A stretch of 64,000 bases of DNA from NCBI RefSeq assembly GCF_003790525.1, contig NZ_CP033635.1, one strand, 5' to 3'. Each line of letters begins with the position of its first letter. Within the stretch, counting starts at the first letter, position 1. Under the pieces are notes generated by a model. It worked only from the letters and a program-made list of their open reading frames with translations, did not search any database and was not told the DNA's origin. A program made the translations under genes and the position numbers. Of the stretch, positions 39,878 to 40,332 are shown piece after piece. The stretch comes from Escherichia coli (lineage in GTDB: Bacteria; Pseudomonadota; Gammaproteobacteria; Enterobacterales; Enterobacteriaceae).

Positions 39878-40078
39878 TTATTTCGCATCCTCTTCGCAAA
39901 CACAGTGCTGACAATTCAGCAGATTGATATTAAGCATTCAACTAATACGCTGCTGACTCTGTCCTCAACACCAGATATTTTCCCTAACCTGATAGTGTAT
40001 GAGAAAAGATTTAACGCCGATAAACTAATCCTTTATGGTTAGGAGAAAAAATAATGTGATTATTCTGAGCCCTTAACA

Positions 40079-40092
40079 TTGATCGTTATCAA
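40079..40092. promoter_or_regulatory. FNR/CRP-class site TTGATcgttATCAA upstream of ydhY
   Basis: perfect match to FNR consensus TTGAT-N4-ATCAA in the AT-rich region about 200 bp upstream of ydhY start. Confidence 0.5.
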
Positions 40093-40332
40093 TTAAAATC
40101 ACAAAGCAAGAAATTATAAGTGAACTGATATTTATTATCATTTGAAATAAATTTAACTTAAGCGACAATTATTTGTGACGGTCATTGCAGAAAACAAAAA
40201 TAATATTATCGTTATAAATTAAAACACATATCGAAATTCGTATAATTTCAGCAGTTGTTATTTAGAATGATTAACTCGACCGCAACTGAAGCAAGAATAT
40301 CAGGATGAAGCTTATCGCCTCATCCTGAATGG

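Follow-up and report, generated by a model that had tools for sequence, protein, structure and literature searches.

The 64-kb stretch of Escherichia coli chromosome analyzed here (hereafter, the window) contains a gap of 455 bp (39878..40332) between ydhY and fumD, as delimited by the list of its open reading frames. Downstream of ydhY lies ydhV, and past fumD follow ynhH, pykF, and lpp (ORF list and RefSeq annotation). The RefSeq annotation of strain 2016C-3878 and that of K-12 give the same genes, and in neither strain is any feature annotated inside the gap. The gap is 100% identical to that of strain 2016C-3878 and 97-98% identical to that of K-12. The differences from K-12 amount to 14 substitutions and a single 1-bp indel, most of them located in the leader or in the AT-rich DNA upstream; no change falls in the FNR site, the -10 hexamer, or the 7-2-7 site. 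The equivalent K-12 interval is 1752479-1752932 (U00096.2), all K-12 coordinates being mapped by alignment. The genes and the observed or predicted elements of the gap are as follows.

39251..39877, minus strand: ydhY (ORF list and RefSeq annotation)
39878..40043, minus strand: ydhY leader of ~166 nt, with a block GGTTAGGG at 39982..39989 and the last 45 nt strongly conserved
39888..39893, minus strand: Shine-Dalgarno sequence AGAGGA, read from the sequence, 10 nt before the ydhY ATG (39875..39877)
39993..40310, no strand: AT-rich core, GC 0.277, equivalent to K-12 promoter island 1752593_318 (published listing, K-12 alignment)
40026..40041, no strand: NarL/NarP-type 7-2-7 site TAACCAT-AA-AGGATTA at ~+3..+18, matching TACYYMT-NN-AKRRGTA at 12/14 positions
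40043..40056, minus strand: core promoter with -10 hexamer CATTAT (40051..40056) and inferred start at ~40043, from the published -42.5 position and conservation
40079..40092, no strand: FNR site TTGATCGTTATCAA, exact consensus, in the class II position (-42.5)
40113..40141, minus strand: possible second promoter ATGATA-17 nt-TATAAT (10/12 in a promoter scan), overlapping the Fur box
40127..40145, no strand: Fur box TCAAATGATAATAAATATC, centre ~-93, 14/19 to the consensus GATAATGATAATCATTATC
40174..40189, no strand: candidate CRP-like site TGCAA-N6-TCACA, centre ~-138.5
40208..40235, no strand: predicted ModE-type operator candidate TTCGATATGTG-TTTTAA-TTTATAACGAT, centre ~-178.5, 16/20
40290..40328, minus strand: intrinsic terminator of fumD, a 12-pair hairpin (40300..40328) with a 5-nt loop and a U-rich tail
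40333..40542, minus strand: fumD (= ydhZ), stop at 40333 (ORF list and RefSeq annotation)

The gap is present as a single copy in 5,422 of 5,426 complete genomes; an origin as a mobile or repeated element was considered and rejected on this count and on the shortness of the internal repeats. Across complete E. coli genomes the coding sequence of ydhY is better conserved than the gap: identity in the gap is only 90-95% in 1,126 genomes, and for ydhY it is below 95% in none. Most of the gap is missing from ~40 genomes. In strain MB10 (locus L003, 3285..4055), an IS1A element stands in place of ydhY, the 5' portion of ydhV, and the gap apart from its last 55 bp.

In base composition the gap is the single lowest-GC place of the 64 kb at each of the window sizes of 455, 300, and 161 bp. 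Its GC content is 0.323, falling to 0.273 in 40000..40299 and to 0.242 in 40100..40260, against 0.502 for the whole window; only 0.05-0.16% of positions in the window are equally low, and all of these overlap the gap. Fifteen A/T runs of at least 6 bases lie within it. The original observation of a strongly AT-rich interval with A/T tracts, unlike its flanks, is thus borne out. The DNA past fumD toward ynhH/pykF (40543..40896 and 40897..41091) is likewise AT-rich (GC 0.33-0.39); ynhH is a small gene (64 aa) directly before pykF.

The AT-rich DNA has been found bound by H-NS in several published K-12 datasets. Two H-NS ChIP-chip regions of 3-4 kb, 1750995-1753982 under anaerobic and 1750103-1754293 under aerobic conditions (U00096.2; Myers 2013 Table S3), cover the entire gap when the coordinates are compared, and the ydhY operon is marked as H-NS-bound in the Grainger, Kahramanoglou, and Oshima datasets (Curran 2017). 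Panyukov and Ozoline 2013 include the ydhY/ydhZ gap, as 1752593_318, in their list of 78 promoter islands; they record H-NS binding for it in each of three previous genome-wide studies and flag an overlap with a GIST genomic island. In an hns stpA mutant, the average FNR ChIP-chip peak at ydhY increased to 1.82 from 0.29 (Myers 2013), and overproduction of SlyA raised expression of the operon 2.5-fold (Curran et al. 2017). On these published data, H-NS extends over the whole AT-rich region and restricts the access of FNR. For IHF, the nearest regions of the Myers 2013 dataset (1749862-1750484 and 1755308-1755414, K-12) both lie outside the gap, and a scan of the gap for the IHF core motif returned only two 8/9 matches. 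With such weak motif matches and no ChIP region of this dataset over the gap, an IHF-bound region was rejected. The nucleoid-protein binding originally predicted therefore stands for H-NS, whose published K-12 regions span the gap, and finds no support for IHF in the Myers 2013 data. Two irregularities of the published tables may be recorded here: Table S6 of Myers 2013 gives 'None' under nucleoid proteins for the FNR site of ydhY, in conflict with Table S3 of the same work, and coordinates of the same site differ by ~15 bp between its tables. The fumD–ynhH/pykF gap falls within the same published H-NS region as the ydhY–fumD gap.

An FNR-type palindrome had been noted inside the gap, and we located it as the exact match at 40079..40092, the only exact TTGAT-N4-ATCAA match in the 64-kb window. 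Its centre (40085.5) maps by alignment to K-12 1752685.5, within 3 bp of the published FNR ChIP-seq peak at 1,752,688 (U00096.2), where the site is placed at -42.5 and the operon is reported as directly FNR-activated (Myers et al. 2013). Binding of FNR at ydhY was independently confirmed by ChIP (the DISTILLER paper). The aerobic/anaerobic RNA ratio of ydhY is 0.25 (Myers 2013), and sigma-70 ChIP-seq peaks at 1752642 and 1752666 are higher anaerobically, the signal at 1752642 being 46.9 in aerobic versus 177.4 in anaerobic cells (Myers 2013). The promoter prefers sigma-S in vitro and was rpoS-dependent in stationary phase in one medium (Maciag et al. 2011). Regulation of ydhYVWXUT by FNR, NarL, and NarP is the subject of Partridge et al. 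2008.

The centre of the FNR site lies 208.5 bp from the ydhY ATG. Since the site is published at -42.5, the start is predicted at ~40043 and the leader at ~166 nt; in mechanistic terms, FNR acting as a class II activator on the exact palindrome would direct transcription from this start. The hexamer CATTAT at 40051..40056 stands at the right distance for an FNR site at -42.5, and together with AATAA just upstream it is largely conserved in alignments of Escherichia and Citrobacter; the 5 bases between AATAA and CATTAT (ATAA[T/C]CACATTAT) vary in C. amalonaticus/sedlakii-type loci. The long leader that had been expected agrees with this start, which does not adjoin the ydhY ATG. We give low confidence to the promoter-like sequence at 40113..40141 as a real promoter, its TATAAT (40113..40118) being specific to E. 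coli and not conserved outside this species in the alignment.

A search with YdhY gave 30 loci, distributed over Escherichia, Citrobacter, Leminorella, and Limnobaculum; 29 of them were usable. The FNR palindrome is kept in all 29, at 141-241 bp upstream of the ATG, and the DNA upstream of it has a GC content of 0.12-0.35 in every one, including four loci without fumD as a neighbour. In the loci that do have fumD as a neighbour (Escherichia and Citrobacter), the -10 hexamer, the 7-2-7 site, and the Fur box are also kept. In the alignments, several conserved blocks stand out from otherwise poorly conserved DNA: the FNR site and its T-rich flank; the -10 hexamer with AATAA; CCTAACC[A/C]TAAAGGATTA at ~+3..+18; GGTTAGGG at ~+57; and the final 45 nt ahead of the ATG. 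Farther upstream, the conserved blocks are AATGATAATAAATATCA, which is the Fur box, and TCACAAAT with the left half of the CRP-like site. This cross-genus footprint is in effect a compact map of the bases that matter. Citrobacter sp. NCU1 carries two ydhY loci (L014 and L030); the second, which has neither an upstream fumD nor a ModE-type site, retains the FNR site together with a shortened form of the 7-2-7 block.

At the upstream end of the gap, the hairpin expected at the 3' end of fumD was recovered at 40300..40328 on the minus strand. It is followed by TATTCTTGCT, a modest tail with 5 U in 8 (terminator scan), and folds at -25 kcal/mol. A hairpin with a U tail occurs at the same place in every Escherichia and Citrobacter lineage, and because it recurs with differing stem sequences, a real terminator is supported.

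Nitrate and nitrite are reported to repress the operon through NarL/NarP, the two regulators named in the title of Partridge 2008. The 7-2-7 site is conserved in the Escherichia and Citrobacter alignments, and Limnobaculum and Leminorella carry another sequence at this position that still fits the consensus (TACCCAC-TT-AGAGGTA in Limnobaculum). Because of the 12/14 match and of the fit to the consensus kept in other genera, we assign the repression to this site and infer it to be the NarL/NarP operator. A regulator bound at +3..+18 would block initiation or promoter escape.

The size of the gap could alternatively reflect a long leader that acts as a regulator at the RNA level, such as a riboswitch (for example, for the molybdenum cofactor), an attenuator, or a target of a small RNA. 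All four genera retain a leader of ~100-200 nt, and three conserved blocks lie within it, including an inverted repeat CCTAACC/GGTTAGG and the last 45 nt. The sequence around the ribosome-binding site is likewise constrained, GAAGAGGATG being invariant in 30/30 aligned sequences of this region. Nevertheless, the structural signals expected of such an element are weak. No Rfam family, the Moco riboswitch included, matched 39000..41500 on either strand at an E-value up to 1, and the fold of the leader (z-score -1.08) is no better than that of shuffled sequence. The consensus fold of 14 leaders has an energy of -10.5 kcal/mol, the covariation term being -1.1, and only 2 of its pairs are changed on both sides; in this fold the leaders of the other loci were taken from the FNR site and not from the transcription start, and so include promoter DNA. 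Changes within GGTTA[G/A/T/C]GG are uncompensated, one arm of the repeat is also the 7-2-7 DNA site, and deletion of ryhB had no effect. An RNA regulator as the main reason for the size of the gap is hence improbable. In some Citrobacter leaders (L017, L018, L023, L024, and L035), an insertion of 19-20 nt (e.g., TACCCGTGTTTAGGGTATG) at ~+20, just past the 7-2-7 site, forms a small inverted repeat of its own.

A small gene missed by annotation, for a protein or an RNA, was also weighed for the gap, where a frame of 45 aa with a GTG start (39905..40042, plus strand) and one of 31 aa with a TTG start (40073..40168, minus strand) can be read. The former is cut to 40 aa in K-12 and to 30 aa in E. 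whittamii, neither is present in Citrobacter, and the gap shows neither an Rfam match nor a RefSeq feature; we consider such a gene very unlikely indeed.

Published data place iron among the inputs of this promoter region. In strain CFT073, a Fur ChIP-seq peak was reported at ydhY under anaerobic conditions, and the RNA ratios of ydhY relative to the wild type are 0.072 in the fur mutant, 1.0 in the ryhB mutant, and 0.109 in the double mutant. In W3110, the log2 change of ydhY without Fur is -7.3. On these data Fur is required for expression, independently of RyhB. A role of Fur as a repressor, taken from Fur iModulon membership, was rejected, as published expression tables show a positive effect. 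Across Escherichia and Citrobacter the block AATGATAATAAATATCA hardly varies, a few loci showing one or two substitutions, and the published Fur ChIP-exo peak of KO11FL (TTATTTCAAATGA) overlaps this conserved Fur box. In strain 042, the published Fur ChIP-exo peak is located within the leader of ydhY (GTGTATGAGAAAA, L042 621..633), 118-130 bp from the ATG and off the Fur box. One published dataset shows ydhY nearly silent in MG1655 with or without Fur, yet well expressed and ~150-fold Fur-dependent in W3110. Anti-silencing is suggested because the control by Fur is positive, independent of RyhB, and exerted inside H-NS-covered DNA; and as the box is too far upstream to occlude the promoter, Fur bound at -93 most likely counteracts silencing by H-NS. 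The effect of Fur could be partly indirect.

Between the Fur box and the fumD terminator, two further candidate elements were found. The CRP-like site (TGnnA-N6-TCACA) has 8-9/10 matches in nearly all orthologues, its TCACA being almost invariant, and would perhaps add a carbon input from -138.5. The second element, at 40208..40235, resembles the ModE consensus ATCGNTATATA-N6-TATATANCGAT, as quoted by Rodionov et al. 2004. It is the best ModE match in the 64-kb window, where the second best scores 14, and the same scoring gives 16 for modA, 16 for moaA, 17 for dmsA, 18 for napF, and 17 for ydhY of K-12, relative to which one substitution lowers the match here from 17 to 16. With a slightly shorter pattern, 1 match per 64 kb was obtained versus 0.01 expected. 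Across the orthologues, 24 loci carry a site with a score of 15-18, placed 136 bp from the FNR centre in Escherichia and 143-149 bp from it in Citrobacter; a score of at least 15 occurs nowhere else among 142,713 other positions of the fetched loci. In Limnobaculum the ModE-type site lies farther upstream; the orthologue scan found none in C. sedlakii or in the second operon copy of Citrobacter sp. NCU1. The alignment shows a conserved TCG...CGA frame around TATA-rich DNA. Spacings of 136 and 147 bp between the ModE-type and FNR sites are near whole helical turns, and 143-149 bp also occur, so that helical phasing of the two sites is suggestive only.

The same element could instead derive from the FNR region, as a degenerated copy of it or as its second half-site. 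A 17-nt direct repeat, ATCGTTATCAATTAAAA (40082..40098) and ATCGTTATAAATTAAAA (40208..40224), is identical at 16/17 positions, and the overlap TTTATAACGATAAT fits the FNR consensus at 7/10 positions. Nevertheless, both halves of the element are conserved, a distance of 22 bp separating the outer TCG from the CGA, the Citrobacter element (e.g., ATCGTTGTATATTTTGTTGTATATCGAT, 18/20) is no longer FNR-like, and a single FNR ChIP-seq peak is reported for the gap, which leaves a descent from the FNR region with little probability. One copy of the repeat lies at the flank of the FNR site and the other in the right half of the ModE-type site; the repeat is much weaker in Citrobacter.

A broader objection is that 40093..40299 serves only as a curved spacer for H-NS binding, its operators being chance matches favoured by the AT-rich composition. 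The region is after all a published H-NS-bound promoter island with suppressed transcription, much of its upstream part aligns poorly between genera (0.42-0.6 identity per 15-nt bin), and a low GC content is kept in differing genomic contexts. The blocks of 0.8-0.9 identity that stand out from this background, however, coincide with the Fur box, with TCACAAAT, and with the CG...CG frame of the ModE-type site; when the AT-rich part is shuffled with its composition preserved, the ModE score of 16 is reached in only 0.15% of trials; and the Fur ChIP-exo signal falls on the Fur box. A region devoid of specific sites is therefore unlikely, and we retain the reading of 40208..40235 as a ModE-type candidate.

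Control by molybdate would be logical here because YdhV binds a molybdenum cofactor, a bis-Mo-MPT form being attributed to this protein in later literature that cites Reschke 2019. A ModE-type operator at ~-178.5 would add a molybdate input. No paper linking ModE to ydhY was found in the literature searched; the search was incomplete and novelty is not claimed, although the predicted operator may be an unreported element. If the site is real, molybdate joins the signals of this promoter, which could help to find the conditions for making the YdhV complex, still without a function.

The gap very probably serves the ydhYVWXUT operon as a composite control region, with the fumD terminator as its upstream boundary, in which the FNR, H-NS, Fur, and NarL/NarP inputs and the inferred sites can be joined in one model. 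A fuller proposal can be put forward only tentatively: that a functional and undescribed ModE operator at 40208..40235, ~180 bp upstream, makes the YdhV operon molybdate-dependent, that Fe-Fur at -93 serves as an anti-silencer against H-NS, and that the promoter integrates oxygen, nitrate, iron, and molybdate. The operon, which encodes an Fe-S and molybdenum enzyme complex, would then be made only without oxygen or nitrate and in the presence of iron and molybdate.

In comparison with known systems, the gap is first of all the same locus as the ydhYVWXUT promoter of E. coli K-12 (Partridge et al. 2008; Myers et al. 2013). This region is already characterized, with published inputs from FNR, NarL/NarP, Fur, and H-NS, and the big picture gains little from a known control region met again. 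It served as a positive control for a scan of sequence alone, in which H-NS occupancy and the long leader were predicted correctly. The gap resembles the H-NS-bound promoter islands in that its K-12 equivalent is itself listed. In a consensus scan simpler than the scoring of the promoter-island authors, the density of promoter-like sites is not above the expectation from base composition, with 6 found versus 4.5 +/- 2.5 in dinucleotide shuffles. Unlike the silent islands, it holds a working, regulated promoter.

The closest parallel for the positive role of Fur is ftnA, which is reportedly activated by Fe-Fur via relief of H-NS silencing. Both genes show positive control that depends on Fur and not on RyhB, with Fur located upstream in H-NS-covered DNA, and the CFT073 ratios for fur, ryhB, and double mutants follow the same pattern (0.165/1.07/0.144 for ftn and 0.072/1.0/0.109 for ydhY). 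At ftnA there are several Fur boxes, whereas one was found at ydhY, where displacement of H-NS by Fur is only presumed. For the candidate ModE-type site, the parallel is the napF control region, at which ModE is said to occupy a position far upstream. Like ydhY, napF heads an anaerobic molybdoenzyme operon with an FNR-dependent promoter, a Nar site, and a ModE or ModE-type site well upstream. The two differ in that the Nar regulators repress at ydhY and activate at napF, and in that the candidate ModE-type site lies farther away at ydhY, 136 bp from the FNR centre.
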